This document shows positions 5,459 to 47,156 of a DNA stretch of 64,000 nucleotides, piece by piece. A program made the position numbers and the translations under genes. How positions within the stretch are numbered: the stretch's first letter is position 1; each line of letters starts with the position of its first letter. The DNA is taken from the NCBI GenBank assembly GCA_944323705.1, contig CALUTM010000002.1, positions 542-64,541 of the forward strand. The letters run 5' to 3'. The notes under the pieces were generated by a model. That model was not told the DNA's origin, ran no database searches, and saw only the letters and a program-made list of their open reading frames with translations. The DNA comes from Candidatus Gastranaerophilales bacterium (GTDB taxonomy: Bacteria > Cyanobacteriota > Vampirovibrionia > Gastranaerophilales > Gastranaerophilaceae).

Positions 5459-5788
5459 ATGAGTGAAGTAAATGGTCCAAAATTTAGTGTTAATTCAGTG
5501 AATTTTAACGGTATGCAAAAATCAATGCCGGAAGTTCAGCAGGAAACTCAAACTGCGGATACACCGCAGCTGAATGATTTTTCCAATCCTAAAGCTGAAT
5601 CATTAGGACGTTCAATGCTGTTTAAAGGTGCTGATGATGTCAGCCACAATTTGAAAGCATTACTTGAAAATCCTCAAATTGCGGAAAATTCGGACAAAGC
5701 CTTTGAAACCGCATACAAAGCCGCTCAGAGTGCAGGGTTGGAAAACCCCTACGAAGAGGCTGCAAGTTTTGCAACCGGAGCCATGTAA
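5459..5788 (+). CDS. Hypothetical protein with N-terminal VNFNG leader
   Basis: 109 aa ORF with GAGG RBS; no recognisable domain. Confidence 0.7.
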   Translation: MSEVNGPKFSVNSVNFNGMQKSMPEVQQETQTADTPQLNDFSNPKAESLGRSMLFKGADDVSHNLKALLENPQIAENSDKAFETAYKAAQSAGLENPYEEAASFATGAM

Positions 5789-5809
5789 AAACACATTAAC
5801 GGAGAGAGT

Positions 5810-6505
5810 ATGGAAGAGAACAATAAGCCTGTTGTGCATTTAATCTCAAAACCCGAGAATATGCTCAAGACAATATACACTGCTTGCAGAACCTGTTACA
5901 GTGCCCTGTCACCGTATGAAATATACAACAGTACGGACGACGAAGAAAAAATGCTTACGCTGATAGAAAGAGTTATTTCTTCGGGGCATTATTCCACTAT
6001 TGAACATATACAGGTTACATTCGCAATTTCAAATGTTTCAAGAGCTTGTACACACCAACTCGTGAGACACCGTCACATGTCTTTTTCACAAAAATCACAA
6101 CGCTATGTGAAGGAAAAAGGACAATTTGACTATATTATTCCCCCCACGATTGCCAAAGACGAAAACCTTAAGAAAAAGTTTGTTGACTTTATGGAAGAAA
6201 TCTCAAAGAAATATTGCGAATTTACGGAAGCGGGTATTCCCGCGGAAGATGCAAGAGCAGTTCTTCCAAATGCCGCTGCAAGCTCTATTGTTGCAAGCCT
6301 CAACCTTAGAGAGATGATTCATCTTGCAAACCTTAGACTCTGCACGCGTGCACAGTATGAAATCAGAACCATGATTAAAATGATGTGTGAAGAATTGACT
6401 AAAGAAGAACCCTGGCTAAAACCGTATTTGGTACCAAAATGCGAAAGGCTCGGATATTGTGATGAAGATAAATCCTGCGGAAGGAAACCAAAATTAGCTC
6501 AATGA
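5810..6505 (+). CDS. thyX: FAD-dependent thymidylate synthase
   Basis: HYSTIEH, RACTHQLVRHRHMSFSQKSQRY and AQYEIR motifs. Confidence 0.96.
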   Translation: MEENNKPVVHLISKPENMLKTIYTACRTCYSALSPYEIYNSTDDEEKMLTLIERVISSGHYSTIEHIQVTFAISNVSRACTHQLVRHRHMSFSQKSQRYVKEKGQFDYIIPPTIAKDENLKKKFVDFMEEISKKYCEFTEAGIPAEDARAVLPNAAASSIVASLNLREMIHLANLRLCTRAQYEIRTMIKMMCEELTKEEPWLKPYLVPKCERLGYCDEDKSCGRKPKLAQ

Positions 6506-7293
6506 AAAAACTTGGAATAATCTTTACATTAATTTTTCTCCTCCTGACAGCATTCTATTATTTTGTACTTGCACCCGAAAAATATACCGAACCTGATTTG
6601 TACGACGAAATAATAAAACGCGGAAAGATTAAGGTCGGAATAAATACAGACTCCAAGCCCTTCGGTTTTTATAATAAAGATTGGGAAATCGAAGGATACG
6701 ACGCAGATTTGGCAAGATATATCGCACAATATCTGCTTAAGAGTCCGAATGCTGTTGAGTTTTTTCCTGTAACACCCGCAAACAGAATGATAAAAGTGTC
6801 AACGGGAGAACTTGATATTATAGTTGCGACAATGACTATAACTCCGCAAAGACAAGAGATTATAGACTTTTCCATCCCATACGATTATGCGGGACAGGCT
6901 CTGCTCGTAAAATCAAGCAGTAAAATAACGTCCATTGCCGATTTAAGCGGACAAAACGTGGGAGTTGTATACGGTACAACGGCAGAAAAAAATATGCTGA
7001 ATCTGGTTCCAAATGCAAATATTATCGGATTTAGAAACTACAGAACGGCGTATGAAGCTCTTAAGGCAGGAAAAATTGACGCACTTACCTCGGATGATAC
7101 AATTTTAAGCAGATTTGCTTTTGAAGATGACTCGGTAAAACTTTTGCCTAAAAGATATTCAAGAGAACCTTACGGAATTGCAATAAGAAAAGGTAAAAGT
7201 ACAAAAAAACTTAAAGAGAATATTGATTTTGCAATCACTGATATGAAACGCAAAAATGTTATCACCAGACTACGCCACAAGTGGGAACTTTAG
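6502..7293 (+). CDS. Amino-acid ABC transporter substrate-binding protein (family 3)
   Basis: N-terminal hydrophobic anchor, GYDADLA, TMTITPQRQEIIDFS, EPYGIA. No permease in the window. Confidence 0.9.
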   Translation: MKKLGIIFTLIFLLLTAFYYFVLAPEKYTEPDLYDEIIKRGKIKVGINTDSKPFGFYNKDWEIEGYDADLARYIAQYLLKSPNAVEFFPVTPANRMIKVSTGELDIIVATMTITPQRQEIIDFSIPYDYAGQALLVKSSSKITSIADLSGQNVGVVYGTTAEKNMLNLVPNANIIGFRNYRTAYEALKAGKIDALTSDDTILSRFAFEDDSVKLLPKRYSREPYGIAIRKGKSTKKLKENIDFAITDMKRKNVITRLRHKWEL

Positions 7294-7327
7294 CGGAAAC
7301 AGAAATTTCTTTTCTTATTTCAAAAAA

Positions 7328-7345
7328 CGGGTTGGGCACAACCCG
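7328..7345. repeat. Degenerate REP-like hairpin CGGGTTG-GGCA-CAACCCG
   Basis: Perfect 7-bp stem, resembling the GTAG-type hairpin at 7500. Confidence 0.5.
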
Positions 7346-7447
7346 ACAAATACTATAAAATCCCAATAAACATCTGAAAGAAGGCGGGGGTAAACAAACG
7401 GTTGGACGTAGAACTATCAATATCAAGCCCGATGAATCTCCATTTCT

Positions 7448-10590: not shown

Positions 10591-12327
10591 ATGACAATAT
10601 CATTCAGCGGTTTGATTTCAGGCTTGGACACTTCGTCATGGGTAGAAGCACTGCTTTCGGTAAAACAGGAAAAAGTCAAGGTACTTGAGGCTGATTTAGA
10701 AGATTTACAAGGTGTAAAGACGACCTTGAACGATACGAGAAGTGCTTTCTCGACGCTCAGGAATGCCCTTGAGAAATTAACAGACGCCAAATTTGGCGGC
10801 TCATTTGACCTGTTTGCCCAAAACTCTGTTACATCATCAAACGAAGATATTTTTACCGCAACGGTAACAAGTAATGCCGTCAGACAGAATTATGACATTA
10901 CCGTTCAACAACTTGCTACATACACCAAGGCATCCGCTCAAGAAGCAGCTTCCGCAGTTGCAGATGATGATACGGTTCTTTCAAACCTCGGCATAACCGC
11001 AGGTACTTTAACAACTTATGTTAATGGTCAAAAACATACAGTGAACATTGATTCCGATGACACTCTGGGAGATTTGAAAGCACGTCTTGCAGAATTTGGC
11101 ATAAAAACAGAAGTGGATGAATCAGGTGTTCTAAGATTTTCAGCCCAAAACGAAGGTGATACGATTAATATCGGAGCCACAACAGACAGTTCAAATCTGG
11201 CTTCTCTGATAGGCTTAACCCAACAAGAAGACGGAACATACGCTTCTACAAATTCTCTTTACAAAGCCTCTGTCGCTTCCGTTTTAACCTCGGAAGATTC
11301 AGGTTTTAATCAACAAATTACGGCAGGAACTTTTACAATAGGTGATGCTACATTCACTATTGATGAAAATACAACGTTATCGTCGCTGATTTCAGAAATT
11401 AACGGCAATGAAGATGCTCAAGCTTATGCCTACTGGGATGATGCTACAGGCAGACTGTCCATAACTTCCACGGTAGAAGGAGCTTCCTACATTAATATTG
11501 AAGCAGGAACAAGCAACTTTACCGATGTTATGGGTTTCACAACCTCGGAATGGGATGAAAACGGAGAGCTTGTTTCATCAAGAATGTACACCGATGCACA
11601 AACACTCGGACAAAATGCAATTTTTACAATAAACGGTACAACGATGACATCGACATCGAATACGGTCACCTCCGATATTTCAAGAATAGACGGGGTTACA
11701 TTGACTCTTAAAAGAGCAAGCACTGAAGATGACGGCAATACCCAGCTCAGTGTAACACAGGATACTACTAAGCTTGTTGAAGCCGTAAACGAATTTATAA
11801 CAGCCTACAATGATGCTATTGCAAAAGTAGAAGAAGTAACAGCTTCCGGTGCGGATCTTCACGGAGAAACATCCCTGACCAGTTTAAAAAATACACTGAG
11901 AACGTATGCAAACGGTTCAAATACTACAAACGGCGGTATTTATAAACTGTTGTCCGATATTGGTATTTCGACAAGTGCTGCTGACGGGAATAACTTATCT
12001 ACGGATACTTATACGCTAAGCTTAGACGAAGATAAGTTCTTGCAAGCATTGCAGGAAAATCCCGATTCGGTTAAGTCAATTCTTGCAGGGGATAACGGAA
12101 TATTCAACATGATGGAAAGTGCGGTTGAACAGAGTCTCTCTGCAACTACGGGTTATTTTGATGTAAAAACTTCTACTCTTGATTCCGATATATCAAGGAT
12201 GGAAGAAAAAATCAGTAAACAAAATACAAATATTGAAACATATAGAACAAGATTGGAAAATCAGTTCTATCAAATGGAACTTGCTATTGCTCAAATGCAG
12301 CAAAATTACAGTTCCTTCCTGTCATAG
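10591..12327 (+). CDS. fliD: Flagellar filament capping protein (HAP2)
   Basis: MTISFSGLISGLDT N-terminus, YDITVQQLA, GQNAIFTING...SNTV...IDGVTLTL, C-terminal RLENQFYQMELAIAQM. Confidence 0.93.
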   Translation: MTISFSGLISGLDTSSWVEALLSVKQEKVKVLEADLEDLQGVKTTLNDTRSAFSTLRNALEKLTDAKFGGSFDLFAQNSVTSSNEDIFTATVTSNAVRQNYDITVQQLATYTKASAQEAASAVADDDTVLSNLGITAGTLTTYVNGQKHTVNIDSDDTLGDLKARLAEFGIKTEVDESGVLRFSAQNEGDTINIGATTDSSNLASLIGLTQQEDGTYASTNSLYKASVASVLTSEDSGFNQQITAGTFTIGDATFTIDENTTLSSLISEINGNEDAQAYAYWDDATGRLSITSTVEGASYINIEAGTSNFTDVMGFTTSEWDENGELVSSRMYTDAQTLGQNAIFTINGTTMTSTSNTVTSDISRIDGVTLTLKRASTEDDGNTQLSVTQDTTKLVEAVNEFITAYNDAIAKVEEVTASGADLHGETSLTSLKNTLRTYANGSNTTNGGIYKLLSDIGISTSAADGNNLSTDTYTLSLDEDKFLQALQENPDSVKSILAGDNGIFNMMESAVEQSLSATTGYFDVKTSTLDSDISRMEEKISKQNTNIETYRTRLENQFYQMELAIAQMQQNYSSFLS

Positions 12328-16058: not shown

Positions 16059-17756
16059 TTAACTCAAAAATAATTGTTTATTTATATAATCTTTAATATA
16101 CGCCCCAATACCGCCTTCGGGTAAAAAGAACCATTGATTAATAATCTTGTTTCTGGTCTCTTTTAATTTGTCGTTATTATTGGTAAAAATTTCATATAAA
16201 ACCGATTCAATATCATCCGTTTTTTGAATTTTGTACATGCCTTCCCTTAATTTAAGCCCGAAATCGTTAAAAGGCATACGACTTTGACTCTCCAAAAGAA
16301 CTATCGGTTTCCCGCTCACAAAATATTCCGCTAAAAAAGATGAACAGTCCGTAATTAAAATATCAGACGTCTTAAAAATATCATAATAATTTCCGAGAGT
16401 ATACGCATTACCGTTCGGAAGCTCACGCCACTTTTCTATATATTCATCATATTCTGCGGGTGTCATAAAATTCACGGCTTCACATTTTGATTTCAATACA
16501 GGGTGCGGTTTAATAAGAAATGAGTACTGCGGATGATTTTTCGCAAAATCAAGGAAAAATCCCGCATGTTCAACAAAATTGGACATTCCGAATCCGCCGT
16601 TTCTTTCTATCGAATGATGAGGAGCGTATATAATTCTCGGTTTTTTATGTTCGTCATCTTTCCACAATTTTTCAATATCGGGATTTATCGGGTCTAAATA
16701 GGCATCCATCTTAGGATATCCCGTTACATAGAGAATATCTTTGTTTTTAAGATTGGTACCTTTCTCATAAAATGTTTTGTGCCACTTACTTTCCGAAAAC
16801 ATTGTCCAGAGATTTGAACAAAAATTTCTTGGAGTAGTTGTTCCCCAACACTTGCTCTCTACCATATTAAACCCGTATGATATGGCACAAGTCAATGCAA
16901 ATTCGGATGTTACGGACGGCGGAATTTTGTGAACATCCACAAACCACGGATGGGTATAAAAAATTATATCTGCACCTAATTCCTTAAGATTGATACATAC
17001 TTCTCTCTTATAATCGTATCCGTCAATAATAGGCATATTGCGTTTGGAGAAAAACTCTATATCTTCTTTTTGCGGATAAATTTTATCCTTAAACCTCGTT
17101 GTTAAAGGCAGTGTGACAAGAAGAAGCTCAAACCTGTCGTCTTTTTTAAATTCATCATAAACAGACTGCCAACCCCATTTTTGATTACTTTCAACAATAA
17201 AAATAATTTTTATCTTGCCTTTTTTATTTCTCAATCGTTCAAGAACTTGCAAATAATTGTATTTGGAATTGTATTCTATATTATTACAGGCAAAAAAGTA
17301 TTTTAAAGTCTTGGCAGGATTTTTAGTAAACTTCAAATACCTCAATGCAATTGTTGTTTTCATTGCCAGTGCGTGTAATTTGTTCTTCAATGACAACTCG
17401 TTTATATACCTGTATTCTTTGTTTTCATGGAAGAAATCAAAAGTATTGAGATAGTTAAGACAAGTCAGGTGATCGAATACCGTAAAAATCAAAACATCGT
17501 AATCAGTACTGTTCAACTCCGAAGGTCTTACGGTATTAAATCCCAGATAAGAATCAGGTTTATTTTTTTCATACTTAACATCACATACCGCAACGACATT
17601 TAACTTATTTTTTACGTCATAAAGCTCAACAATTTTGTCAAACAAAAGCCCGCAACCGTACAAAATAACTTTTTTATTTTTGTATAGTCTTGACCATTGC
17701 TCAAGTTTGGCTTCAAAATTATGTTCTTTCAGATAGCTTTCATAAATAGAATTCAT
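16059..17756 (-). CDS. CDP-glycerol:glycerophosphate transferase family protein with N-terminal Rossmann-like module
   Basis: IIYAPHH, IKPHP, DILITDCSSFLAEYF..GKPIV; N-terminal KKVILYGCG...VVAVCD. Confidence 0.82.
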   Translation of the reverse strand: MNSIYESYLKEHNFEAKLEQWSRLYKNKKVILYGCGLLFDKIVELYDVKNKLNVVAVCDVKYEKNKPDSYLGFNTVRPSELNSTDYDVLIFTVFDHLTCLNYLNTFDFFHENKEYRYINELSLKNKLHALAMKTTIALRYLKFTKNPAKTLKYFFACNNIEYNSKYNYLQVLERLRNKKGKIKIIFIVESNQKWGWQSVYDEFKKDDRFELLLVTLPLTTRFKDKIYPQKEDIEFFSKRNMPIIDGYDYKREVCINLKELGADIIFYTHPWFVDVHKIPPSVTSEFALTCAISYGFNMVESKCWGTTTPRNFCSNLWTMFSESKWHKTFYEKGTNLKNKDILYVTGYPKMDAYLDPINPDIEKLWKDDEHKKPRIIYAPHHSIERNGGFGMSNFVEHAGFFLDFAKNHPQYSFLIKPHPVLKSKCEAVNFMTPAEYDEYIEKWRELPNGNAYTLGNYYDIFKTSDILITDCSSFLAEYFVSGKPIVLLESQSRMPFNDFGLKLREGMYKIQKTDDIESVLYEIFTNNNDKLKETRNKIINQWFFLPEGGIGAYIKDYINKQLFLS

Positions 17757-17767
17757 AACGTTCTCCG

Positions 17768-18883: not shown

Positions 18884-18985
18884 AAACCCCTCATCCTCTC
18901 ATAAACATGGTATCAGACTTAGAATTTTGTGTCAATTTGGTATTTTATGCTATTATTATATAATTAAATTTGGGGATTATTTTTT

Positions 18986-25292: not shown

Positions 25293-27728
<2,436 letters not shown>

Positions 27729-28341: not shown

Positions 28342-29238
28342 ATGCAGGTTAATAATCAGAGCTCTATAACATACAAAGGGTTTCCTCGTTGTATAAATAA
28401 CGTAAACCCTATTTATCGCTACAGCCGCAAAGCAATCAATAAAATGGCAGAGGCTACAAGACAAAGAGTGCTCCCTATATCACCGGATTTGGAAGGCAAA
28501 GTAAAATATGTACAGTTAAACGAAGCTTCCGCATGGGATATTAACCCCAATCATTCATCAAAATACGTTTTATTTTTACACGGCATGGCTCAAAATGTAA
28601 GCAGCTATCAACGTTTGTATGAAGCTATTCTTCAAAAAGGACTCGGAGTTTTCGCCGTAGAATACCGCGGTCATGGTACAAATAAGCAAGCTGAGATAAC
28701 AGAAGATAAATTGCGAAGTGATGTTAAAAAAGCTTATAAATATTTAACAAAAAAAGAAGAAATCCAACCCGAAAATATTACGGTTGTAGGGCATAGTATG
28801 GGCACAAGTCTGGCAACAAATTTAGTCAGTAAAAATAAAGATATCAGCTCACTTATCCTGATTTCTCCAATCGCAAGTATTGCAATGGTTAGTCAAAAAT
28901 TTATGCTCAACAAAGAATTAGGGCTCGGTATTCCGCCCAAAGTAAAACAATTCACAGATAAAATTAAACCTTTAAAATGGCTGTATGAGATGTGCTTTAA
29001 TACCATAAACAAGATGAAAGACGTTAAATCCCCGACATATATTATTCAATCCCAGAATGATTCGGTTACAAAAATCGGAGGCTCAAGGAGACTTGCAAAA
29101 GTTGCCAAACGCAAGGGGGTTTTAAAAGAGTTCGTATTCTTCCCTAAAGGGGGACATAATATTGATAAAAACAAGCTTGAGGCAGTATCATATATTCTAG
29201 AAAAGTCAAACAGTCAAGTTTTAAAAACGCACCATTAA
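28342..29238 (+). CDS. Alpha/beta hydrolase with N-terminal ITYKG leader
   Basis: LFLHG, EYRGHG, GHSMG (Ser), QSQND (Asp), GGHN (His). Confidence 0.88.
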   Translation: MQVNNQSSITYKGFPRCINNVNPIYRYSRKAINKMAEATRQRVLPISPDLEGKVKYVQLNEASAWDINPNHSSKYVLFLHGMAQNVSSYQRLYEAILQKGLGVFAVEYRGHGTNKQAEITEDKLRSDVKKAYKYLTKKEEIQPENITVVGHSMGTSLATNLVSKNKDISSLILISPIASIAMVSQKFMLNKELGLGIPPKVKQFTDKIKPLKWLYEMCFNTINKMKDVKSPTYIIQSQNDSVTKIGGSRRLAKVAKRKGVLKEFVFFPKGGHNIDKNKLEAVSYILEKSNSQVLKTHH

Positions 29239-30317
29239 TTTGGGCGGGATTTTTTTGAGGAACGATACCTCTTCTCAGCGGCTTTTGCCTGATTTTCCGT
29301 ATATTTATAATTGCTTAAATCTAAATTAATCCGCCCCTCTGATTCTGTATTAAGGAGTCTCGTTATCTTGTAAGGGTAAAGTTCGTTACCTTTCAGGGCT
29401 CCTCTATTCATAAGTGCAATTATTTTATCCATATATTTTTGACAGTTGACGGGAATTTTCGGGAACCTGTCAATATACTTGCTCAGAGGCATATTTGACC
29501 TGTAACTGTTAGCACTTGCGGAAGCAAGAATAAAATTATCAATAGAATTTGCTCCGCCTAAAGATTCCGGTTTTACATGCTCAACAGTAGCAACGGAAGC
29601 TCTTAAGAGACGTTTTGCCGTCTCCTGATTGGAACGGTTTGCATACTTTACGATAAACGCATTTTCACTGCTGCCTGATGTCGGAAGAAAAAGTGCCTTG
29701 TCTTTCATCTTTTCAAAGGTCGAAACCTCACCGGGCAGCGGTGTAATCTCATCCAGTGAAGTGAGGAAAGTTTTTCTCTTAAATGTATCTTCCTGATTGT
29801 TTACCAGAATAACCTGACGGCAGCGTGTTGTCTTACGTCTCAAATCCAATGCGGTCTTAGGAGACAACTCCATGGAAATCTTATCTACACTGTCAAGAAC
29901 ATTAAATTCTTCCAATTTAAGTTTAGTCAATGCGTCATCATACCACTGTTTTAAACAAGCATCTATCGTTGAATTCGGCTGCTCTATTGCTTGCTGTTTC
30001 AAACGTTCAAAAATCGCCCTCTCAGTCTTTTGCATAAATTCTTTATAAGGAGAAAGAGTCTTTATTGTATCTTTCAGAGTGGAACATTTGTCCAATTTCT
30101 TTTCGATTCTTGACATATCTGAACCCGCAATCATTTTACCCCCGTAATAAGGGCAAGTTAGCCCTCGAAGTGCCTTTAGGGCATTCCCCGCCGTTGTAGC
30201 CGACCGAAAAGAGACCGTATCGGGTTTTATAAATAAATCAGCTTTAGGCAAGCAGACTGCTTTTGGTTGATATTTATTATAATTAAATTTATTTGCGAAA
30301 ATCGCATCAATACGCAT
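29235..30317 (-). CDS. HNH-like nuclease domain protein
   Basis: TVEHVKPESLGGANSIDNFILASASANSYRSN; N-terminal CPYYGG; DTVSFRS leader. Confidence 0.65.
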   Translation of the reverse strand: MRIDAIFANKFNYNKYQPKAVCLPKADLFIKPDTVSFRSATTAGNALKALRGLTCPYYGGKMIAGSDMSRIEKKLDKCSTLKDTIKTLSPYKEFMQKTERAIFERLKQQAIEQPNSTIDACLKQWYDDALTKLKLEEFNVLDSVDKISMELSPKTALDLRRKTTRCRQVILVNNQEDTFKRKTFLTSLDEITPLPGEVSTFEKMKDKALFLPTSGSSENAFIVKYANRSNQETAKRLLRASVATVEHVKPESLGGANSIDNFILASASANSYRSNMPLSKYIDRFPKIPVNCQKYMDKIIALMNRGALKGNELYPYKITRLLNTESEGRINLDLSNYKYTENQAKAAEKRYRSSKKSRPN

Positions 30318-31232: not shown

Positions 31233-31862
31233 ATGATACCCAACAATATTAATTTCCGCGGAATACCCATAGCAAAAACAAAAATTGCGGAAAACAATTT
31301 AACACTGTACAAATTAACCTCCCGGGATAAAGAATTTACGGACAGACTTTACCACAGTCTCAACCTGCCCGAATTATATCCGGGATTTAATAAACTGCAA
31401 TACGGGATTTGGGATGAAGTCACACATTTGGGACTTTCTCAGACTTATGAAAAAAATCAAAATACTATGCTGATTACGGCAGATAATCGTCCCTGCGGAG
31501 TATTAAACTATTCGGCACACTCCCCAAAATTCAACCTTAATTACGTAAGCACATGGCCGATTAAAATCGGGCAAAAAGTTCCGCTTGCCGGAAAAACATT
31601 ATTTATGGAATTTTTCAGACAATTTCTTAACAGCGACTGCCGTACAATTGAACTTTGTGCACTCAAATACGCACCGTTCAGTGCAATAAGCAAATATTTA
31701 TCTTTAGGCTTCAAACCACGAGGAGGCGATAATTTTCGAGAGCTCATGCGTACCGATAGAGAAAGTGCCGCAAAAACACTGCAAAAACTTGAACAATCAA
31801 TAAACCTGTCTTCCGTCAAGGACAGTAACGATTATGACCTAATCCAAAGACTGGAGATATAA
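31233..31862 (+). CDS. GNAT-like acetyltransferase with N-terminal INFRG leader
   Basis: LNYVSTWP...PLAGKTLF (motif A-like) and AISKYLSLGF (motif B-like). Confidence 0.55.
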   Translation: MIPNNINFRGIPIAKTKIAENNLTLYKLTSRDKEFTDRLYHSLNLPELYPGFNKLQYGIWDEVTHLGLSQTYEKNQNTMLITADNRPCGVLNYSAHSPKFNLNYVSTWPIKIGQKVPLAGKTLFMEFFRQFLNSDCRTIELCALKYAPFSAISKYLSLGFKPRGGDNFRELMRTDRESAAKTLQKLEQSINLSSVKDSNDYDLIQRLEI

Positions 31863-36475: not shown

Positions 36476-37713
36476 ATAAAATTCCGATAGTTTTGGCGTC
36501 AGACAGAAACTGTGCTATGCAAATGTATATAACAATCTTGTCTGCAATCGCAAATAAAAAGAAAGATAGTTTTTATGACTTTTACTGCCTCATTCCGTCC
36601 AAATTTTCCAAATTTGTAAACCAAAAATTTAAAAGGCTGATAAGCAGGCATCAGAATGTAAATTTAACTTTTATAAGTATGAAAAATATATTTTCTCACC
36701 TGCCAATGCAAATCGAACATATTACCTCCCCGACTTTTTATAGGTTAAAAATCGCGGAATTATTACCCCAATACGACAAAGCACTTTATCTTGATATTGA
36801 CACAATTGTATTAGAAGATTTGACTCAATTATTCAATACCGATTTAGGAAACAATTATATAGGAGGTGTCCCTGCAGCAAGCTACATAATAGGATATGAC
36901 CGTTTAAAAGATTATTTTGACGATATCGGTCTGAAGGATATGGCATATTATATTAATGCAGGTGTCATACTCTGGAATCTTAAACAAATAAGACAAGAAA
37001 ATGTAACAGAAAAACTTTTGGCATTAACAAAAAATACTTATAAATTTATGGATCAAGATATTATAAACCTTGTTTGTTACGGCAAAATAAAACATTTGGA
37101 TTTTAAATATAACCTCATGACACCCTATAAACACCGCTTTTTAGACAAACCTGAATTATGCAATAAAATATATGAGATATATGGTGAAACAAATTTAAAA
37201 AACGCAATAAAAAATCCTGTTATTATTCATTATGCCTCAAGCCTTAAGCCCTGGAACGATAAAAAAGTATGGCTCGGAAATTATTGGCAGCATTATGCAA
37301 AAAAGGCTCCTGCCAAAATCAGGATTAAAGAAAGTTCAAGTACAAGATTTTTAAACCAAATCTCTGAAAACAAATTCAAAAAACTTGTCTTTTGGGGGGC
37401 AAGTCTGTTCCTGAAAGATTTAATAGAAACAAAAAGAATAAAACGCCATAAAATCTTGGGTATAGTAGATGCTGACCCGTCTAAACACGGTAAAAAAATC
37501 GGTGACTTTCAAATATATTCTCCACAAGACTTGAATGTGTTAAAACCCGATGCAGTTATTTTCGCAATTAAAAATCGTAATGAGGATATTTATCCACAGA
37601 TACAAAATATTCTGAAAAAAGAATACCCGAATATAAAACTTTTACCAAATGCGTTTAACTTCAAGACAAAACGAAAATACAACAAAACAGACGCAAGAAA
37701 GGATGAAGCATGA
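36472..37713 (+). CDS. GT8 glycosyltransferase with C-terminal Rossmann-like module
   Basis: ALYLDID, INAGV, DQDIIN, IIHYA...KPW. Confidence 0.9.
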   Translation: MNKIPIVLASDRNCAMQMYITILSAIANKKKDSFYDFYCLIPSKFSKFVNQKFKRLISRHQNVNLTFISMKNIFSHLPMQIEHITSPTFYRLKIAELLPQYDKALYLDIDTIVLEDLTQLFNTDLGNNYIGGVPAASYIIGYDRLKDYFDDIGLKDMAYYINAGVILWNLKQIRQENVTEKLLALTKNTYKFMDQDIINLVCYGKIKHLDFKYNLMTPYKHRFLDKPELCNKIYEIYGETNLKNAIKNPVIIHYASSLKPWNDKKVWLGNYWQHYAKKAPAKIRIKESSSTRFLNQISENKFKKLVFWGASLFLKDLIETKRIKRHKILGIVDADPSKHGKKIGDFQIYSPQDLNVLKPDAVIFAIKNRNEDIYPQIQNILKKEYPNIKLLPNAFNFKTKRKYNKTDARKDEA

Positions 37714-39089
37714 AATTTGCAAGAATGAGACAAATGTACAAATACAATCCCGCAAGCTGGAATCTGGAAGGAAATATCGGCGATTGCATACAAAATATTG
37801 CAATAGAAAATTTATATAAAAAATTGGGTATAACCGATTTAATCCAAATCAATCGCGACGATTTAATCAACTATCACGGAGAAAAAGCAATTCTTCCCAT
37901 GCAAGGATGGTTCGGTAACCTTCACGATTCATTTTTAGCATCCTGGTCAAAAGATATTATCCCAATATTTATAGGATTTCATCTAAATGATGCCATGAAC
38001 TGCAGAGATGTTTTTGTTGAAAAAGATTTACACAACAAAATTAAAAACTATGAACCAATCGGATGCAGAGACAGAAGCACAAGAGACTTTCTTAGCCGAC
38101 TCGGCATTGAAACATATTTCTCCGCTTGTGCTACGCTTACCCTTCCCAAAAGGACAAAAGAACCGAAAGACGGAAAGATATTTCTGGTTGATTTATCTCC
38201 AAAAGCAATGGATATAATTCCTAAAAAAATCAGACAACAGGCAGATGAATCCATTACACACATATATCAATTCACAAAATATCCGCTAAGCGAAGAAGAA
38301 GTTGCAGACTACGAAAACTACACAAAAAAAATCCTCGAAAGATATTATAATGAAGCAAAATTGGTAATAACTTCCCGCATACACTCGGCTATGCCCTGTA
38401 TCGCAATGGGAATTCCCGTTATTTTTATCCACTCAAAACTGAAAGATTCCCGCTTGGATGTGCTGGACGGAATTATTCCAAAATATTCCCCCAACGACAA
38501 GTATGCAATTAATTGGAATCCCAAAGCCCCGAATATTGAAAAAATGAAAGAACAAATTATTAATAATGTACTGTACCAAATATGCAAATGTGCTAAAAAC
38601 AACGGTGTTGAAATAAAAACCGATACGGAATATAAAAATAACCTGCACGAAATGCAAAAACTTGATGCTGAACTCGAGAAAAAGGAATTTATTAACAAAT
38701 TAAAATTATTTCCGTCAAGATTTATATTTGGCACAATCGGAGCAATAAGAGATTTTGTATCTTATCAGAGTGCACAATTTAAACTGTTAAAAAACATATA
38801 CCGTCATAAAACTGTTATTTTATGGGGAGCAAGTTTATACTTAGAAAAATTTCTTAAAAGATATAAAATAAAAAATAAAAACATCGTCGGAATTGTTGAT
38901 AAAAACTATGAAAAACATTTCCAAAAACTTGGCGAATATACAATCTATCCTCCCGAAAAGATTGCAGAATTGAATGCGGATACGATAATATGCACCATTA
39001 AAAATCATCACGAAAAAGTGTATCCGCAAGTAAAAAAATATATTGAAGAGAATTTCCCGGACAAAACAATACTACCCGATATATTTTGA
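37710..39089 (+). CDS. Polysaccharide pyruvyl transferase family protein with C-terminal Rossmann-like module
   Basis: NIGD, IGCRD, VITSRIHSAMPCIAMGIPV. Confidence 0.85.
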   Translation: MKFARMRQMYKYNPASWNLEGNIGDCIQNIAIENLYKKLGITDLIQINRDDLINYHGEKAILPMQGWFGNLHDSFLASWSKDIIPIFIGFHLNDAMNCRDVFVEKDLHNKIKNYEPIGCRDRSTRDFLSRLGIETYFSACATLTLPKRTKEPKDGKIFLVDLSPKAMDIIPKKIRQQADESITHIYQFTKYPLSEEEVADYENYTKKILERYYNEAKLVITSRIHSAMPCIAMGIPVIFIHSKLKDSRLDVLDGIIPKYSPNDKYAINWNPKAPNIEKMKEQIINNVLYQICKCAKNNGVEIKTDTEYKNNLHEMQKLDAELEKKEFINKLKLFPSRFIFGTIGAIRDFVSYQSAQFKLLKNIYRHKTVILWGASLYLEKFLKRYKIKNKNIVGIVDKNYEKHFQKLGEYTIYPPEKIAELNADTIICTIKNHHEKVYPQVKKYIEENFPDKTILPDIF

Positions 39090-39100
39090 GGTGAAATAAT

Positions 39101-40231
39101 ATGATAAAAGAAAAAATGCTACAAGATTTTTTGGACAAAATCCCCAATGAAGGCGAAATATTTATCTTTGGAGCCTGCAAAATTGGAGAAAAAATTTTAA
39201 AGGATTTAGAAATATATAAGCCAAATGTGAAAATAGTCGGTTTTATTGATAATAAAGTCACGGGAAGTTTTGACGGACTTCCTGTACAAAGTCTCAAGAA
39301 TTTTGTAAAAAATGAAAATAAACCGGTAATAATGTCAACAAAAAATGATGAAAGATTAATACTCAATATATTTGATTTGTATAATATTCCGGCAGTTCAA
39401 CTGACAGAAGCTGCAAACCATTACTATCGTTATCTTGCAAATATTTTAAACGACGAAAATTATAAAAAGATAATTAATATTTTTGATAAACGAGAGGACC
39501 GACATCTGTTTGACCTGATTTTTAAAACCCGTATTAAACTTTCGGATTCAAAAGAAATTGAAAATTTCTATTATACCCATTGTGCCACAAAGTATAAAGT
39601 AAATCGTGTTTATAAAAAGCAGTATCTTGATAAAATCAATCAAAATACAATAAAAACACTTTTTGATGCAGGATTCTATGACGGCACTAATGTTATTGCA
39701 TATAATCGCCTGCTTCCGCATTTGGAAAAAATCTGCGGATTTGAAGCCATATACGATATTACAAGAAATCCCTTAATAGAAGAATTCATTTTAGATAAAA
39801 AACTTGAAATTATTCCGTATGTTTTGGGAAACAAAAATGAAGAAATCAAGTTTTGCTTGGAAAAAGATAATTTAGGTGCATCTTTTTGTGAAGGTACCTC
39901 GACAAAGAAAATATCTTCTTCAATAGAAACAGAGAATCGCATAGTTAATATGATTACCTTGGACAAATTTTGTTTTGAAAGAAATATTTTCCCCGATTTC
40001 ATCAAAATGGATATAGAGGGTGCAGAACTCTCAGCCCTCAATGGCGGAATTAAAACCATAAAAAAATGCCGCCCTCAACTTGCGATTTCCATTTATCACT
40101 CAAGCGAAGATTTTGTTAATATTCCGCTTTATCTAAAAGAAAATCTTGAAAATTACAAATTCCGACTCGGACATTATTCTCCGGACCTATCCGAAACAGT
40201 GCTTTATGCAATACCTGATGAGTTAGCGTAA
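39101..40231 (+). CDS. FkbM family methyltransferase with N-terminal Rossmann-like module
   Basis: FDAGFYDG, ITLDKF, DFIKMDIEGAEL, LAISIYH; paralog of 17768-18883. Confidence 0.88.
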   Translation: MIKEKMLQDFLDKIPNEGEIFIFGACKIGEKILKDLEIYKPNVKIVGFIDNKVTGSFDGLPVQSLKNFVKNENKPVIMSTKNDERLILNIFDLYNIPAVQLTEAANHYYRYLANILNDENYKKIINIFDKREDRHLFDLIFKTRIKLSDSKEIENFYYTHCATKYKVNRVYKKQYLDKINQNTIKTLFDAGFYDGTNVIAYNRLLPHLEKICGFEAIYDITRNPLIEEFILDKKLEIIPYVLGNKNEEIKFCLEKDNLGASFCEGTSTKKISSSIETENRIVNMITLDKFCFERNIFPDFIKMDIEGAELSALNGGIKTIKKCRPQLAISIYHSSEDFVNIPLYLKENLENYKFRLGHYSPDLSETVLYAIPDELA

Positions 40232-40244: not shown

Positions 40245-40780
40245 ATGATAGATTGTAAACGTGACATTTATGACCCAGAAGATAAAAAAGAAAACAAAAT
40301 CTACAGATATGCTTTAGGTAAAAAGGGGGATAATATGATTATTTGTATCGCCCTTAATCCGAGTTCTGCAACAAATATAGAAACAGATCCAACTTTGAGA
40401 GCCGTTTGCAACATTGCAAAAAACAATGAGTATAAAGGTTTTGTTCTTCTGAATATATGTCCAAAAAGAGGAGTTAATCCTGATTTGGTAAAATGTGATA
40501 AAGAGTTTATCAATAAGAATATTTTAATTATAGAAAAATATTTGAAAGAATATGAAAAAGCAGATATTTGGTGTGCCTGGGGAAACAAGGTCGACCAAGA
40601 ACCTTTCAGAGCTTGTTTTAAATCGATTGCAAAATTAATAGGAAACAGAATCTGGTATTGTACTTCATTAACTAAGAAAACCACCCGCATCATCCGCTAT
40701 TTATTCCTTATAAAAGTACTTTAAAAAAGCTTAGTAACATAGAAAAAGAAAATTATATAAAACATTACGAGAAAGACTAA
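40245..40780 (+). pseudogene. DUF1643 family protein, frameshifted near the C-terminus
   Basis: ALNPS, D.T, WCAWG motifs. The conserved HPxHPL(F/Y) motif lies in another frame from 40682 and runs to TAA 40778-40780; one extra A in the run at 40677-40680 restores it. Confidence 0.7.
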
Positions 40781-42834: not shown

Positions 42835-45708
42835 TTACTGTTTGGTTAACTCCTGATACATTTTCATAAGTTCGGCGACGGTTTCGGATTCAGTGAACCA
42901 TCGGAGCTTACCGTTTTCATCCCGTTGTTTAAAACCGTAGGCTTCCATTACTGCCCTGTCGTTTTCCTGGTGTGCTTTTCTGAGTTCAACGGGCATTGTC
43001 AAATCGTCATACAAATCCGCAAGCGAACAATCGGGATACAATGCCCGTGCGTCTAAAATCCCCTGTGCAGTCTTTTCTATTTTTGCCTTCTGCTCATCTG
43101 TCGGACTGCACCACGGGAAGTTGTTGTAGACAATGTCTTTAGAATAACGATAATCACTTTTTAACCTTCCGCAAACAGCTCCTACCCAAGCCATGTGAAC
43201 ATTGGAAGTTAAAATACCCATTTCATATAATGTTGCATATTTTATAATGTGCACAGAATCACTACTTAAACTGTTATTAGCAAGAAAACCAATCGGAATA
43301 TATTTCCGTCTTTCCGAAGAAACTCTTGGTATTATTATATAGTCAGATTCAGGCATATTTTCCACATGGAATCTTGTAGGTTTATCCGCCAGTTTTCTCG
43401 TACCCTCGCTTTTGCTCAATAAACGCAGGTTTCTGACATTTTCAACTCTTTTTAAGCAATGCGGCATTTGTCTCAACTCCGCAGGAGAACAGTCTCCCAA
43501 CCATAGACAATAACGTGGTTTTTGATTAATAAATTCTTCAGCACCGTACCAAGGTTTAAAATATTGTTCGGATTTAGGTTCCCGTTTTATAAAATCAAGC
43601 ATTTCTTCACGGGTAAATAGGTAATTTCCGCCGTCAATTGGTTTATTGCCTATTCCTATTTCAGGTACATTACATAATGGCTTATTGCGGCTTTCTATAA
43701 ATACATCAGGTGCATCAATCAGGTAAGCGTTAATATTATCAACAATTTGCATACGCTCATTTGAGTACAGTTTTTTGTGTCCGTCATTTGCTACATAACT
43801 AAACCCGACAATTACACAGTGGACATGAGCTTTAGAATTTGATTCACTGTCCCATCTGAATGTTTTGTGTGCATAATTAATACTTATTCCCTGCTCAAAC
43901 AAAGGCTTCCATAATATTGGCACCTGCTCGCCTTGTGTTATCGAGTTTGTGGAAACAAGAGCGGTTTTTATGTCATGCTGAACTTGTTTCAGCATCTGTG
44001 GTTGGACAGACCCTGAAATAAATTCAGGGTGACATGATGCGTACATAAGTTGTGAAGCTTTAAAATACCAACAGGAGACATAATCAAGGTTCCCTGCATT
44101 TTTCCATTTGGTACCAAAAATATTAAACAAATCTTCTTTTTGAGCCGGAGACATCAGCCTTGCACCAACAAACGGCGGGTTGCCCATAATATAATTGCAT
44201 TTATCCCTCGGGATTACGTCCTCCCAATCAATCCGCAAGGCGTTAGCCTCTACTATATTTGCGTATGTTTTGAGCGGGAGAAAATCCAAATCCATGTGGA
44301 CAATATCTTCCGTCTTTTTCATCATTTGGGATTCGGCTATCCAGAGAGCGGTTTTTGCAACAGTTACCGCAAAATCATTGATTTCTATCCCGTAAAACTG
44401 TCCGATTGAAACTTTTATGGGGTTTGTGACCGCACCCATGGTAATCTGACCGCGGTAAAGCTCATATAAAATCTCGTTTTCAAGTTTTCTTAATGAAATA
44501 TACGTTTCCGTCAAAAAGTTTCCGCTTCCGCAGGCGGGGTCTAAAAAGTTCAGATTTGCAATTTTTGTTTGAAATTCAATCAACTTTTTATCATATTCTT
44601 TAAGAAGTTTTTTGCTTTGAATTACATTCTTAAACTCATTTTTTATCGCTTCAAATTCTTCATTAAGTTCGTCCATAAACAACGGGTCGATTACTTTATG
44701 GATATTCTCGATTGAAGTATAGTGCATACCGCCTTTTCTTCTGGTCTCGGGGTTAAGGGTGCTTTCAAATACCGCACCGAAAATTGTAGGGCTTATGTCC
44801 GACCAGTCAAAATCCGCACTTGCTTTATTAAGGAGCAAATCTCTGATTTCGTCGGTAAAATTAGGGATTTCAATATGTTCATTTGCAAACAGCCCGCCGT
44901 TTACGTAAGGAAATTCCGCAAGCTCGGGTTCCATATACGGGTCGCGGTCTTGGGGTTTGGTATTCAGGACTTCAAATAATTCAATCAATCCTTTTCGCAT
45001 TCTTCCCGTTTCAAAACGTGACAGGTAATCTAAAAACATATTATGTTTGGGGAAAATTCCCGCATCTTCAGCATAGAGACAGAAAACAAGTCTTACGCAG
45101 AGAATATTCAAACTTTTCAATGTTTCTTCGGAAGTTTTGTCTATATATCTGTCTAAAAATGCGTCATAAAGCAGCCCTACAATATCACCTGCCTTAACGG
45201 AAACTTCCATTTCTTTTTTGAGGTGTTCGCTTCCCTGATTAATCAAAAAATCAAGCCGGTAATATTCTTTTTCCAAATCTTTGAGAAGAATTTCCTGCGG
45301 TTCACCGTTCGGGCGTTCCATATCGTAAACACAAAACTTTTGAAAATTGCATGTTACAACCCACCTGGGGTGCTGTGATACGGGAAGCTCCGTTATGTAT
45401 CTTTTTGCCTGCTGAAACGGATTTAAATAACTTCCGTCCGATTGCTTGATAGCTTTATACAAATCCTTATCGGAACTTTTTTGTTCAATCAAAACTTTTG
45501 TTGAGGGAATATACGCGTCAATAAAACTCGTATGGTCAAGGTGAACTTTATCTTCAAAAGAAATAAACTGTTCCGCATGCTCAACACCCAAAACATCATG
45601 CAATAAGGAAATCCAGTACTTTTGGCTCTCACCTTTTTCGTAACCTTTGTCCTGCCAGTATTCAATAAAATCTTTTATTTCGCTTCTCTGTAATGTTTTC
45701 ATCATCAC
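42835..45708 (-). CDS. MmeI-family Type IIL restriction-modification enzyme (nuclease + N6-adenine MTase + TRD)
   Basis: FIDAYIP...LIEQKS PD-(D/E)XK, NGGLF, FLDPACGSGNF, MGNPPF, STNSITQGEQV, C-terminal LADLYD...LRKAH. Confidence 0.92.
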   Translation of the reverse strand: MMMKTLQRSEIKDFIEYWQDKGYEKGESQKYWISLLHDVLGVEHAEQFISFEDKVHLDHTSFIDAYIPSTKVLIEQKSSDKDLYKAIKQSDGSYLNPFQQAKRYITELPVSQHPRWVVTCNFQKFCVYDMERPNGEPQEILLKDLEKEYYRLDFLINQGSEHLKKEMEVSVKAGDIVGLLYDAFLDRYIDKTSEETLKSLNILCVRLVFCLYAEDAGIFPKHNMFLDYLSRFETGRMRKGLIELFEVLNTKPQDRDPYMEPELAEFPYVNGGLFANEHIEIPNFTDEIRDLLLNKASADFDWSDISPTIFGAVFESTLNPETRRKGGMHYTSIENIHKVIDPLFMDELNEEFEAIKNEFKNVIQSKKLLKEYDKKLIEFQTKIANLNFLDPACGSGNFLTETYISLRKLENEILYELYRGQITMGAVTNPIKVSIGQFYGIEINDFAVTVAKTALWIAESQMMKKTEDIVHMDLDFLPLKTYANIVEANALRIDWEDVIPRDKCNYIMGNPPFVGARLMSPAQKEDLFNIFGTKWKNAGNLDYVSCWYFKASQLMYASCHPEFISGSVQPQMLKQVQHDIKTALVSTNSITQGEQVPILWKPLFEQGISINYAHKTFRWDSESNSKAHVHCVIVGFSYVANDGHKKLYSNERMQIVDNINAYLIDAPDVFIESRNKPLCNVPEIGIGNKPIDGGNYLFTREEMLDFIKREPKSEQYFKPWYGAEEFINQKPRYCLWLGDCSPAELRQMPHCLKRVENVRNLRLLSKSEGTRKLADKPTRFHVENMPESDYIIIPRVSSERRKYIPIGFLANNSLSSDSVHIIKYATLYEMGILTSNVHMAWVGAVCGRLKSDYRYSKDIVYNNFPWCSPTDEQKAKIEKTAQGILDARALYPDCSLADLYDDLTMPVELRKAHQENDRAVMEAYGFKQRDENGKLRWFTESETVAELMKMYQELTKQ
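43970..44035. repeat. Double-hairpin palindromic element inserted in-frame in the RM gene
   Basis: ATGTCA-TGCTGAACTTGTTTCAGCA-TCT..AGA-CCCTGAAATAAATTCAGGG-TGACAT; encodes CHPEFISGSVQPQMLKQVQHD. Confidence 0.88.
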
Positions 45709-45832
45709 ACAAACTCCTGTTATTATTTAAATTATAACAGGATAAATAACTTATGTCGAACGGTTAAAAGCAACAATTAAGTCATATCTTATCGGGCGAT
45801 GTTTTTATTTATAATGCATATTATTTTGTAGT

Positions 45833-46534
45833 ATGAAAAAAATCCTGTGCTTGCTTCTTTTCGTTATAATTCCTGTATTTGCATACGAAGTTTATACTCC
45901 CGAGAACTATAATTACAAAAACAGCGAAGATAAACTTCTGTTCGTTGTAGATTATTCAAACAGTATGGGAGAATATTTGGAACACAAAACAAAAGCAAAT
46001 CAGGTGAAAGACATGATGAATTACATACTTCCCCGCATTTCGCCTTCAACCAAAGTCGGAATGCGAGTTTACGGACATACCTGCAATCTTCTTGCATATA
46101 ACGCTTGCAGAAGCTCCGAACTCGTAGTACCGCTCAATTTTGCAAACTCTTCGGCAATCCTTTCCAAAATGGAAAAACTCAGACCGAGAGGAATGACCCC
46201 GATTACGTATTCGCTCAAGCAGGCAGTCAAGGACGATTTAGACGGATATGAAGGTATAAAACACATAATTCTGCTTACTGACGGCGGAGAAAACTGCGAC
46301 GAAAGCCCGTGTGATTATTCGATAGAACTCGTCAAAAAACGAAGAGACATTAAAATCGACGTAATTGCATTCAATGTCCGTGACGAAGACGACTTAGCCC
46401 AACTTAAATGCACCGCGGACGTAACAGGAGGGAAATTTTCCGAAGCAAATACAAAGGCACAACTTTTCCGCTCAATGGAAGAAATGATTTTACCGCACAA
46501 AAGCGTCGAAGCGGTTATTTATGAAAGTCAATAA
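45833..46534 (+). CDS. Secreted vWA domain protein
   Basis: Signal peptide, DYSNS MIDAS, GMTP, LLTDG. Confidence 0.88.
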   Translation: MKKILCLLLFVIIPVFAYEVYTPENYNYKNSEDKLLFVVDYSNSMGEYLEHKTKANQVKDMMNYILPRISPSTKVGMRVYGHTCNLLAYNACRSSELVVPLNFANSSAILSKMEKLRPRGMTPITYSLKQAVKDDLDGYEGIKHIILLTDGGENCDESPCDYSIELVKKRRDIKIDVIAFNVRDEDDLAQLKCTADVTGGKFSEANTKAQLFRSMEEMILPHKSVEAVIYESQ

Positions 46535-46535
46535 T

Positions 46536-47156
46536 TTAGTTTTCAAGACTCTCTTTTATATTCTTGAGCTTTACATTCAAATCTTCTCTGAGTTTATTTT
46601 TCAAACTATCCATCTGTTGTATTAATTCTTCTTCTCTTTTTTCAAGTAAAGCCGACTCGGCTTCTTCAGCCTTATATTTATTAAAATCTTTATTATACAT
46701 TTTGCAAAAATTTCGCATTTTGCTTATATAAGCATCCGTAAGATTTTTCTTTTGTGAATTGTATAAAAGCTCTAAATGTACTCCTTCAATATCTTTTACT
46801 AACCCTAAGGATTTTTGCGGTATCAACTGCCCCAGAAGATAAGAAAGTGCGGGCAAAAACGGCATATCAGTTGTTTGTAACAAATACGGCTTTTTATCAG
46901 CAGTAATAAAAACCCGCTCTTTACCCGGCTTTTCTGCCGCTTTAACCGTATTAATTTCGATAATTTTACCTGCCCTGTCTTTTAATATTGAATCCAACCC
47001 CAAAATAACTTTTGGAGCTGTAAGAGAGAAATGCGAATTCTTACCGTTAACTTCGGCGGCTGCTTCCGTAAGAATCCTTTGCATACATTGATTATTTTTG
47101 ATTTTAGATTGAAAATTTACACATTGATTTATATTATTCTGAACCTTCATTTTCAT
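46536..47156 (-). CDS. Hypothetical protein with VNFQS leader and coiled-coil C-terminus
   Basis: AAAGG RBS before ATG 47156; MKMKVQNNINQCVNFQS. Confidence 0.7.
   Translation of the reverse strand: MKMKVQNNINQCVNFQSKIKNNQCMQRILTEAAAEVNGKNSHFSLTAPKVILGLDSILKDRAGKIIEINTVKAAEKPGKERVFITADKKPYLLQTTDMPFLPALSYLLGQLIPQKSLGLVKDIEGVHLELLYNSQKKNLTDAYISKMRNFCKMYNKDFNKYKAEEAESALLEKREEELIQQMDSLKNKLREDLNVKLKNIKESLEN

Follow-up and report, generated by a model that had tools for sequence, protein, structure and literature searches.

The 64-kb window analysed here (the whole stretch of 64,000 nucleotides from contig CALUTM010000002.1 of a Candidatus Gastranaerophilales bacterium) encodes five proteins that begin with a similar short leader, and this leader is real and selected at the protein level. 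The five proteins appear to belong to a large class in Gastranaerophilales in which a two-module, disordered leader stands ahead of otherwise unrelated domains, and with a probability of roughly one in two we regard the leader as a new, lineage-specific signal for the sorting or secretion, independent of Sec, of a set of effector-like proteins. A first-pass annotation of the window had picked out the five N-termini by the pattern [IV]-[SNT]-[FY]-x-[GS], had likened them to the start of the flagellar cap protein FliD and had proposed that they direct enzymes into the flagellar export system. All five sites carry the motif as it had reported:

5459..5788, plus strand: 109-aa orphan protein; leader residues 1-18 (nt 5459-5512), MSEVNGPKFSVNSVNFNG
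28342..29238, plus strand: 298-aa alpha/beta hydrolase; leader residues 1-13 (nt 28342-28380), MQVNNQSSITYKG
29235..30317, minus strand (start at 30317): 360-aa protein with a zinc knuckle (TCPYYG) and a C-terminal HNH nuclease domain; leader region residues 1-39 (nt 30317-30201), MRIDAI...DLFIKPDTVSFRS, with ...KPDTVSFRS at residues 35-39
31233..31862, plus strand: 209-aa GNAT-fold protein; leader residues 1-10 (nt 31233-31262), MIPNNINFRG
46536..47156, minus strand (start at 47156): 206-aa orphan protein with a coiled-coil-like C-terminus; leader residues 1-17 (nt 47156-47106), MKMKVQNNINQCVNFQS

The five proteins are unrelated to each other, as had been claimed, with no BLASTP pair among them at E<0.1, and the functional labels given to three of them hold. 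The hydrolase matches Pfam Hydrolase_4 and Abhydrolase_1 from about residue 72, the HNH assignment is weak in Pfam and reaches E=1.3e-5 to phrog_2214 in PHROGs, and the 209-aa protein adopts a GNAT fold according to AlphaFold2 and Foldseek, where nearly all of the top 50 PDB matches are acetyltransferases (best E=2e-4). The 109-aa orphan has no match in Pfam, NCBIfam, PADLOC or PHROGs, and the 206-aa orphan has no family match in these four collections except a spurious one to the RecN coiled-coil. The leader itself matches no model in Pfam, NCBIfam or PADLOC, and a literature search found no paper describing it. Between two of the leader genes lies a further orphan (30380-31201) that begins MKISML..., similar to the first module of the leader, with no clear second module; its start choice varies among gene callers in other strains (234-269 aa).

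The window is composed of ordinary chromosomal genes (efp, recN, thyX, lepA, gyrB, metG, typA, dnaN and recG, together with a solitary fliD), a polysaccharide cluster and an MmeI-type restriction-modification enzyme, with a G+C content of 32-41% along its length. Its gyrB (25293-27728, minus strand) is 98% identical to that of the Candidatus Gastranaerophilales metagenome-assembled genome (MAG) CALUPJ01 (Melainabacteria/Vampirovibrionia) and 83-97% identical to those of 79 further species-level MAGs from human, primate, rodent and ruminant gut; many gut metagenome assemblies contain the same locus. Our main sample comprised 80 gyrB-anchored loci from distinct species plus the window, with 1296 open reading frames (ORFs) in 710 BLAST families over ~1.6 Mb. 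Further loci, among them L087, L092 and L099, were obtained independently of gyrB and one contig came from the Joint Genome Institute (JGI; L101), and the sampled loci amount in total to ~1.7 Mb. Genes outside the window are given below as locus number and coordinates.

Across this sample the leader has a recurrent anatomy. Module 1 is Met-x-Ile/Val at the extreme N-terminus, with a small non-polar residue at position 3-4, and typically takes the form M-[KNQR]-[IV]-x-[PST]-[IV]-x-N, e.g., MNIQPINN, MKINSVQN, MRISPINT or MQIQPVTN. A spacer of 0 to ~60 residues follows, rich in Asn and Gln and with few acidic residues and Leu; relative to protein interiors the leader holds 2.7x as much Asn, 2.2x Gln, 0.3x Asp/Glu and 0.6x Leu, a composition that is partly built into the classifier described below. 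Module 2 reads [TSIVP]-[SN(TA)]-[F>Y,H]-[KRQTN]-[GSA], with its Phe 6-42 residues from the start in local families and ~40-70 in the HNH family. Furthermore, several unrelated leader families carry an optional third element, D-x-F-[VI]-[KR]-S or with [ST] at its last position, near module 2 (e.g., the family of the 29235 protein, P0266-P0415, and L052:16755, L076:8828 and L087:9204), with ~4.6x enrichment within residues 1-90, from a small number of instances. The Ser codons of module 2 include both TCN and AGY, and its Phe codons (TTT:TTC 33:10) match the genome-wide 75% TTT, which indicates that the leader is read as protein; a signal at the RNA or DNA level was ruled out on the same grounds.

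Enrichment of the motif in N-termini over background, which the first-pass annotation had named among the tests of its proposal, was found by regular-expression density and by a two-module classifier. The original pattern has 12 matches in the 19,731 residues of 53 window proteins, half of them (6/12) in the first 40 residues, and over the 1296 ORFs its density is 17 per 10^4 in residues 1-10 vs 1.6 per 10^4 beyond residue 200. A refined core pattern, [SN]F[KRTNQ][GSA], was counted 51 times within residues 1-45 (35 families) and 70 times in sequence six times as long (48 families). The control patterns show no enrichment, the ratio of N-terminal to interior density being 0.9x for the reversed pattern, 1.2x with Leu in place of Phe and 0.8x with Tyr in place of Phe. 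Tyr at the aromatic position, as in the ITYKG of the window hydrolase, is not enriched in general but is a genuine F/Y/H variant within the hydrolase family. The two-module classifier asked for I/V at position 3-4, for an N+Q share of 20% or more and a D+E share of 8% or less ahead of the Phe, and for a module 2 lying within 52 residues. It accepted 25/1205 real N-termini; of the shadow ORFs, read out of frame, it accepted 0/1342 (p=7e-9), and of internal segments beginning with Met 6/5922 (odds ratio 21, p=1e-14).

These counts bear on the simplest alternative, namely that there is no signal at all and that the resemblance reflects chance or the composition of AT-rich 5' coding ends (Asn, Ile, Lys and Phe codons) or over-extended ORFs. 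The low G+C content given above and the shortness of the motif would favour such an origin, as would a looser classifier that fires on 5.0% of real N-termini, 2.2% of shadow ORFs and 0.5% of internal segments and is thus just 2.3x over shadow ORFs, and an unbiased k-mer scan in which the motif stays below Bonferroni significance; a 14-column hidden Markov model, two-fold cross-validated, likewise gave weak separation. Against it stand the results of the two-module classifier and the unenriched reversed, Leu- and Tyr-substituted patterns, and in addition the leader is kept through synonymous change and in large families, of hundreds of members, whose genes were predicted by other programs, and Shine-Dalgarno sequences lie ahead of window starts (GAGG upstream of the 5459 start, AAAGG before the 47156 start). 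We consider an origin by chance or composition largely refuted, with a very slight residual probability.

Conservation within families points in the same direction. The leader is retained in families whose members otherwise share just 35-70% identity with the window protein, and an orthologue of the 109-aa orphan (L049:16918-17250) retains MSEINGHNFGVNQTNFNG. In the hydrolase family, ~110 homologue clusters all carry M-x-I...[ST][FYH][KQT][GS], down to ~35% identity, and just two very remote matches are without a leader. The HNH family has 735 representatives at 50% identity, and nearly all of the best 150 show M-[KR]-[IV]-x-x-[IV], a spacer and [VI][SN]F[TKG][GS], ahead of a zinc knuckle (CPCCG or CPYSG). 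The GNAT family is represented by 4 clusters among 5.8 billion proteins, with F8, G10 and IPIAK invariant. In the AlphaFold2 models this conserved stretch is disordered: the hydrolase has a mean predicted local distance difference test (pLDDT) score of 92.7 with residues 1-15 below 50, and the GNAT protein has residues 1-20 below 50, the remainder forming the GNAT fold. Being conserved and yet predicted to be disordered, the leader behaves like a short linear recognition motif. A phage origin or a role in virion targeting was considered and rejected, since IMG/VR viral contigs hold no relatives of the HNH or GNAT proteins and the PHROGs matches are merely to generic HNH and esterase families.

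The leader was found on more than 30 unrelated BLAST families in relatives spanning more than 80 species, including the loci obtained independently of gyrB and the low-GC JGI contig. The leader is present on ~2-5% of the genes sampled, rising to about a quarter in some 20-kb islands. Leader genes lie clustered, with four consecutive ones beside gyrB in L074 and five or six among the 22 genes of L087. These islands are variable and their leader-gene content differs between species at one chromosomal site, as expected of a fast-turning-over accessory set. A mobile element (L093:1-9848, with serine recombinase, ParB-like, IstB-like and helix-turn-helix genes) abuts the leader-bearing hydrolase gene in L093 and stands in place of orphan genes present at that site in L092.

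The cargo is diverse. Besides the alpha/beta hydrolase, zinc-knuckle HNH nucleases and a GNAT protein it includes an AAA ATPase (IetA/TRIP13-like), a PRTase-CE / PRTase_III-A protein, a PHP phosphoesterase, a weak tyrosine-phosphatase-like protein, a metallophosphoesterase whose catalytic domain begins immediately after the leader, a class I/II aminotransferase fused to an extra C-terminal domain, which has leaderless housekeeping paralogues in the same genome, and many orphans of 80-600 aa. One subset carries a glycine-zipper transmembrane segment 5-25 residues past module 2, among them small membrane proteins (L022:4543, L014:5014 and L074:15377).

The hydrolase family also gives the most informative, if indirect, evidence on function. 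We examined 20 remote homologues, mostly from soil metagenomes with 54-65% G+C, whose alignment to the window protein begins at about residue 64, and ~17 of the 20 have an N-terminal hydrophobic signal-anchor (Kyte-Doolittle 2.5-3.4) exactly at the leader position, so that the leader occupies the place of an export or membrane-insertion signal. Such a swap between leader and signal peptide was seen only against these remote soil homologues and in none of the local loci. Close hydrolase relatives in JGI metagenomes are exclusively low-GC, and the one with a recovered N-terminus (L101) has the leader.

We compared the leader with the established N-terminal sorting signals. A Sec signal peptide needs a hydrophobic region (h-region) of 7-15 or more residues, and the five window proteins have none: their maximum Kyte-Doolittle hydrophobicity over 12 residues is -0.01 to 1.03, compared with 2.8-3.4 for true signal peptides in the window (14910, 45833 and 6502), which bears out the earlier statement that they are without Sec signal peptides. 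As normal Sec signal peptides are present in the same genome, the leader points to a separate route. No leader contains an RR pair or an h-region as in the Tat signal (S/T-R-R-x-F-L-K plus h-region), and there is neither an h-region nor a conserved Cys as in lipoproteins (lipobox L-x-x-C after the h-region). Type IV prepilins combine Gly or Ala before F-T-L-x-E with ~20 hydrophobic residues, and the leaders are without a hydrophobic helix; the true prepilins of this lineage read MEKRA/FTLAEVLITLGIIG. Two prepilin-like proteins (L088:16014-16694 and L079:18504-19331) have Ala, not Gly, before the FTLAEV helix (MEKRA/FTLAEV), one of them with a 21-residue leader. Double-glycine (GG) leaders have Gly at -2, Gly, Ala or Ser at -1 and hydrophobic residues at -4, -7 and -12, and position -2 here is K/R/Q/T/N in essentially all leaders. 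Together with the flagellar comparison given below, the leader is outside every signal family tested, i.e. Sec, Tat, lipoprotein, prepilin, GG leader and early flagellar dual signal.

The GG comparison also concerns the proposal of a cleavable bacteriocin-type leader, cut after the [GSA] of module 2 by an ATP-binding cassette (ABC) exporter or peptidase (type I or similar to peptidase-containing ABC transporters). Module 2 does end in Gly, Ala or Ser, as GG leaders do, the small glycine-zipper membrane cargo resembles class II and Cdz-type bacteriocins, and in several species the hydrolase gene is followed by genes for an ABC exporter and a CHAP protein without a Sec signal. The last arrangement is a conserved gene order (hydrolase, MsbA-like ABC protein, CHAP); the CHAP proteins (L088:12842-13666 and L092:12854-13636), of the peptidoglycan hydrolase type, have N-termini rich in Asn, Tyr, Phe and Gly. 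However, the Gly at -2 that defines GG leaders is replaced by K/R/Q/T/N, their acidic/hydrophobic pattern is missing, and proteins as long as 656 aa, or enzymes with several domains, would be unusual substrates of this kind of export. Moreover, the adjoining ABC protein is best matched by MsbA (512 bits) and has no C39 domain; the sole ABC exporter in the ~1.7 Mb of sampled loci is MsbA-like, with no C39-domain ABC transporter and no ABC protein longer than 650 aa in any locus. We therefore regard a bacteriocin-type leader as quite improbable.

The proposal of the first-pass annotation, that the leader directs export by the flagellar type III apparatus or by a derivative of it, the flagellar gate then serving as a general route of secretion for non-flagellar enzymes, rested in part on the window gene for FliD:

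10591..12327, plus strand: fliD (flagellar filament cap), with Pfam FliD_N and FliD_C; not in the leader class

The reported N-terminus, MTISFSG, is correct, but its identification with the leader did not survive comparison: the window FliD (MTISFSGLISGLD) aligns with E. coli FliD (MASISSLGVGSGLD), translated from the E. coli fliD gene, solved FliD structures being without the N-terminus, and I, S, G and SGLD are invariant. As ISFSG aligns with ISSLG of E. coli, it is a FliD-family N-terminus with a lineage-specific Phe and not the leader; an Asn-rich spacer is missing from it, and its Phe is not followed by K/R/Q/T/N. The gene is solitary: its neighbours are lepA and a phosphoglucomutase-like gene, none of flaG, fliS or a flagellin gene adjoins it, and there are no other secretion genes in the window; the flagellar genes of this lineage appear to be scattered in small units. 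According to the literature, flagella were lost at least once in Gastranaerophilales, MEL.A1 and MEL.C1 lacking them and MEL.B1, MEL.B2 and ACD20 having them.

Several features of the leader do suit a flagellar route. It is N-terminal, disordered, polar and poor in acidic residues, with Ile/Val at position 3, similar to signals of type III secretion systems (T3SS). The lineage has flagellar genes, namely fliD in the window and fliJ-fliK-flgE operons and flagellins in relatives, and in L052 a leader-bearing PRTase gene adjoins flgE. In its layout, with a small non-polar N-terminal residue ahead of a polar spacer and a Phe motif, the leader is comparable to the dual signals of early flagellar subunits, in which a hydrophobic N-terminal signal is joined to a gate-recognition motif, FxxxPhi, that docks at FlhB, and at least 19-30 residues between the two signals are needed in Salmonella (Bryant et al. 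2022, PMC8983047). A FliK-like family, recognised by a weak Flg_hook match and conserved fliJ-fliK-flgE synteny (P0146-P0265; L052:19296-20351, minus strand), likewise has a Phe motif after a polar spacer: its more than 1000 clusters begin MNI[ED]T and carry [VA]KF[SA]DELK ~25-40 residues from the start. The FxxxL of this family looks like a gate-recognition motif, in agreement with the one described in Salmonella (PMC8983047), in a phylum in which flagellar export signals are unstudied. The fliJ-fliK-flgE mini-operon is conserved and lies apart from other flagellar genes. Adjoining fliD or flagellin genes in relatives are also large proteins starting MGM[SA]ASQAR[LY]LAL (L064:7712-9781, L040:17162-18775 and L067:18047-19180; the first has no NCBIfam match), which may be a lineage-specific flagellar component.

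The details, however, speak against flagellar export. KF[SA]DELK is acidic, of the FxxxL type and clearly distinct from the F-[KR]-[GSA] of module 2, and module 2 is absent from the lineage's flagellins (MPVIIRTNM..., MAATAAITINTN...), FlgB/C/F/G and FlgE-family hook protein. A residue L/I/V/M/F/Y/W at F+4 is present in 12/31 leader families (39%) vs a background of 34.7%, so that the FxxxPhi rule does not describe module 2. Nor does the spacing agree, the Phe lying fewer than 20 residues from the start in 19/31 families, at 20-29 in 9/31 and at 30 or more in only 3/31. Leader genes are not embedded in the sampled flagellar operons, and delivery to the medium would be a poor fit for cargo that depends on ATP, acetyl-CoA or pyridoxal phosphate (PLP). 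Of the earlier proposal, the real and selected leader stands, and a targeting or export role is the most plausible one for it, whereas the link to the flagellum is unsupported by substrates, FxxxPhi motif and spacing; we consider flagellar export of this cargo unlikely.

The leader might also act inside the cell, as an N-terminal degron or adaptor peptide (a ClpXP-type N-motif) or as a tag to a cytoplasmic hub or the membrane, with no export. Enzymes dependent on ATP, acetyl-CoA or PLP among the cargo would be at home there, a disordered conserved peptide behaves like a short linear motif, and in the transmembrane subset a basic module 2 before the membrane segment would, by the positive-inside rule, suit an N-terminal tail lying in the cytoplasm. 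The leader also has some likeness to ClpX N-motifs, whose form 'polar-T/phi-phi-basic-phi' loosely resembles T-S-F-K-A. Four observations make such a role doubtful. Remote hydrolase homologues have a signal-anchor at the leader position; the metallophosphoesterase catalytic domain begins straight after the leader, just as in exported 5'-nucleotidases it directly follows the signal peptide; the Sec-less CHAP peptidoglycan hydrolase, which has leader-like sequences, must leave the cytoplasm to reach its substrate; and the leader-bearing aminotransferase has leaderless housekeeping paralogues beside it.

Under the reading that we favour, a Sec-independent sorting or secretion signal, the leader would be a short linear motif recognised by a receptor of its own, whether an export gate, a chaperone or an adaptor, and the pathway would route fast-turning-over effector-like proteins out of the cytoplasm. 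Since several cargo enzymes need ATP, acetyl-CoA or PLP, they would, if exported, be expected to act in the cytoplasm of another cell rather than in the medium. Several points weigh against this reading. The cofactor requirement is equally compatible with a cytoplasmic role of the leader. No secretion apparatus adjoins leader genes in the ~1.7 Mb sampled, and the ABC exporter beside the hydrolase (L088 and L092; 605 aa) is the MsbA-like protein without a C39 peptidase domain described above. The window HNH gene has no obvious co-oriented immunity gene, which disfavours a classic antibacterial toxin-immunity pair for this protein. Our statistics depend on our own ORF calls and on classifiers tuned post hoc on the same data, and unbiased scans of exact and reduced-alphabet k-mers are dominated by ordinary hydrophobic signal peptides, with hsFbg-type patterns ranking just below the signal-peptide patterns and failing Bonferroni correction. 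The leader is for now a candidate signal, and its export function and its receptor are putative.

A broader interpretation can be put forward tentatively, with clearly less than even confidence: gut and rumen Gastranaerophilales may have an undescribed, motif-defined and Sec-independent export or delivery pathway with the two-module leader as its recognition signal, which would mark a large, rapidly diversifying effector set aimed at other microbes or eukaryotic cells. Its effectors would comprise nucleases, lipase-type hydrolases, acetyltransferases, ATPases and pore-type glycine-zipper proteins, its machinery might be novel or might be a flagellar gate put to another use, and delivery to other cells would echo the predatory habit of the sister order Vampirovibrionales.

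Gastranaerophilales are a widespread, uncultured and poorly understood part of human, primate and ruminant gut communities. A leader defined by sequence would let a candidate secretome or effector set be listed straight from metagenomes, would give a handle on the cognate machinery via phylogenetic profiling and would add a rare Sec-independent N-terminal signal with a recognisable consensus. Moreover, it explains why many 'orphan' genes of this lineage are alike in their first 10-40 residues, a point of use in the annotation of genes and of their start codons. Delivery of the cargo into other cells, if it takes place, would change the picture of gut Melainabacteria from that of passive fermenters to that of cell-interacting organisms, possibly antagonists or parasites.

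Further genes of the window deserve mention. A complete MmeI-family (type IIL) restriction-modification enzyme is encoded at 42835-45708, with all five MmeI domains matched. The surface-polysaccharide cluster (33990-40231) encodes two GT2 and one GT8 glycosyltransferases, a pyruvyl transferase and a Methyltransf_21 protein; its first four products have a C2185-like_N domain, and it includes the lowest G+C of the window (0.316 at 36-40 kb). Three adjacent paralogues of 565, 371 and 339 aa (16059-20005) lie in another low-G+C block (0.328) and share with the Methyltransf_21 gene (39101-40231) an N-terminal '...KKVILYG.G' Rossmann-like start. The DUF1643 ORF at 40245-40724 has 159 aa vs 178 aa in same-species strains (L001-L006), which may reflect a frameshift or a C-terminal difference. 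Directly upstream of gyrB, at 22854-25283, lies an 809-aa fusion of a pyridine-nucleotide disulfide reductase with rhodanese, TusA and DsrE domains.

Among known systems, several resemble the leader in part. The effector signals of injectisome T3SS, as described by the Hop rules of Pseudomonas syringae, are polar-rich with Ile/Val at position 3-4 and few acidic residues, and they sit on diverse effector-like sets including membrane proteins, as does the leader here; secretion of non-flagellar proteins through the flagellum is also established, e.g., for Campylobacter Cia and Fed proteins and Yersinia YplA. We know of no conserved sequence motif in T3SS signals, unlike the leader, and of no injectisome in Melainabacteria, and none was seen here. 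The dual signals of early flagellar subunits also share features with it, being N-terminal, unstructured and Sec-free, with a small non-polar residue 3-7 from the start, a polar spacer and a Phe-centred motif. They differ in that the leader has F-[KRQTN]-[GSA] with the Phe usually 6-28 residues from the start, not 30 or more, and in that its cargo consists of enzymes and orphans instead of axial subunits.

GG leaders (class II bacteriocins, Cdz glycine-zipper toxins and cyanobacterial NHLP/Nif11 peptides) are likewise short and N-terminal, end in a small residue and precede unrelated cargo; small glycine-zipper proteins also occur among the leader cargo, and GG leaders are in wide use in the cyanobacterial relatives. 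The leader differs from them in having neither Gly at -2 nor an LSxxELxxIxGG-like pattern, and much of its cargo is large multidomain enzymes. Motifs in the N-region of Sec and Tat signals (twin-arginine, YSIRK-G/S, the autotransporter extended signal peptide region and KxYKxGKxW) also mark a subset of exported proteins by a short and often lineage-specific sequence, but they are followed by an h-region and a signal-peptidase site, whereas the leader has no h-region and no RR pair. A parallel in scale is given by the prepilin-type expansions of Elusimicrobia, Lentisphaerae and Planctomycetes, where one N-terminal signature stands on very many unrelated proteins per lineage; that signature is G/FTLIE with a hydrophobic helix, and the prepilins of the present lineage (KRA/FTLAEV...) are clearly distinct from the leader.

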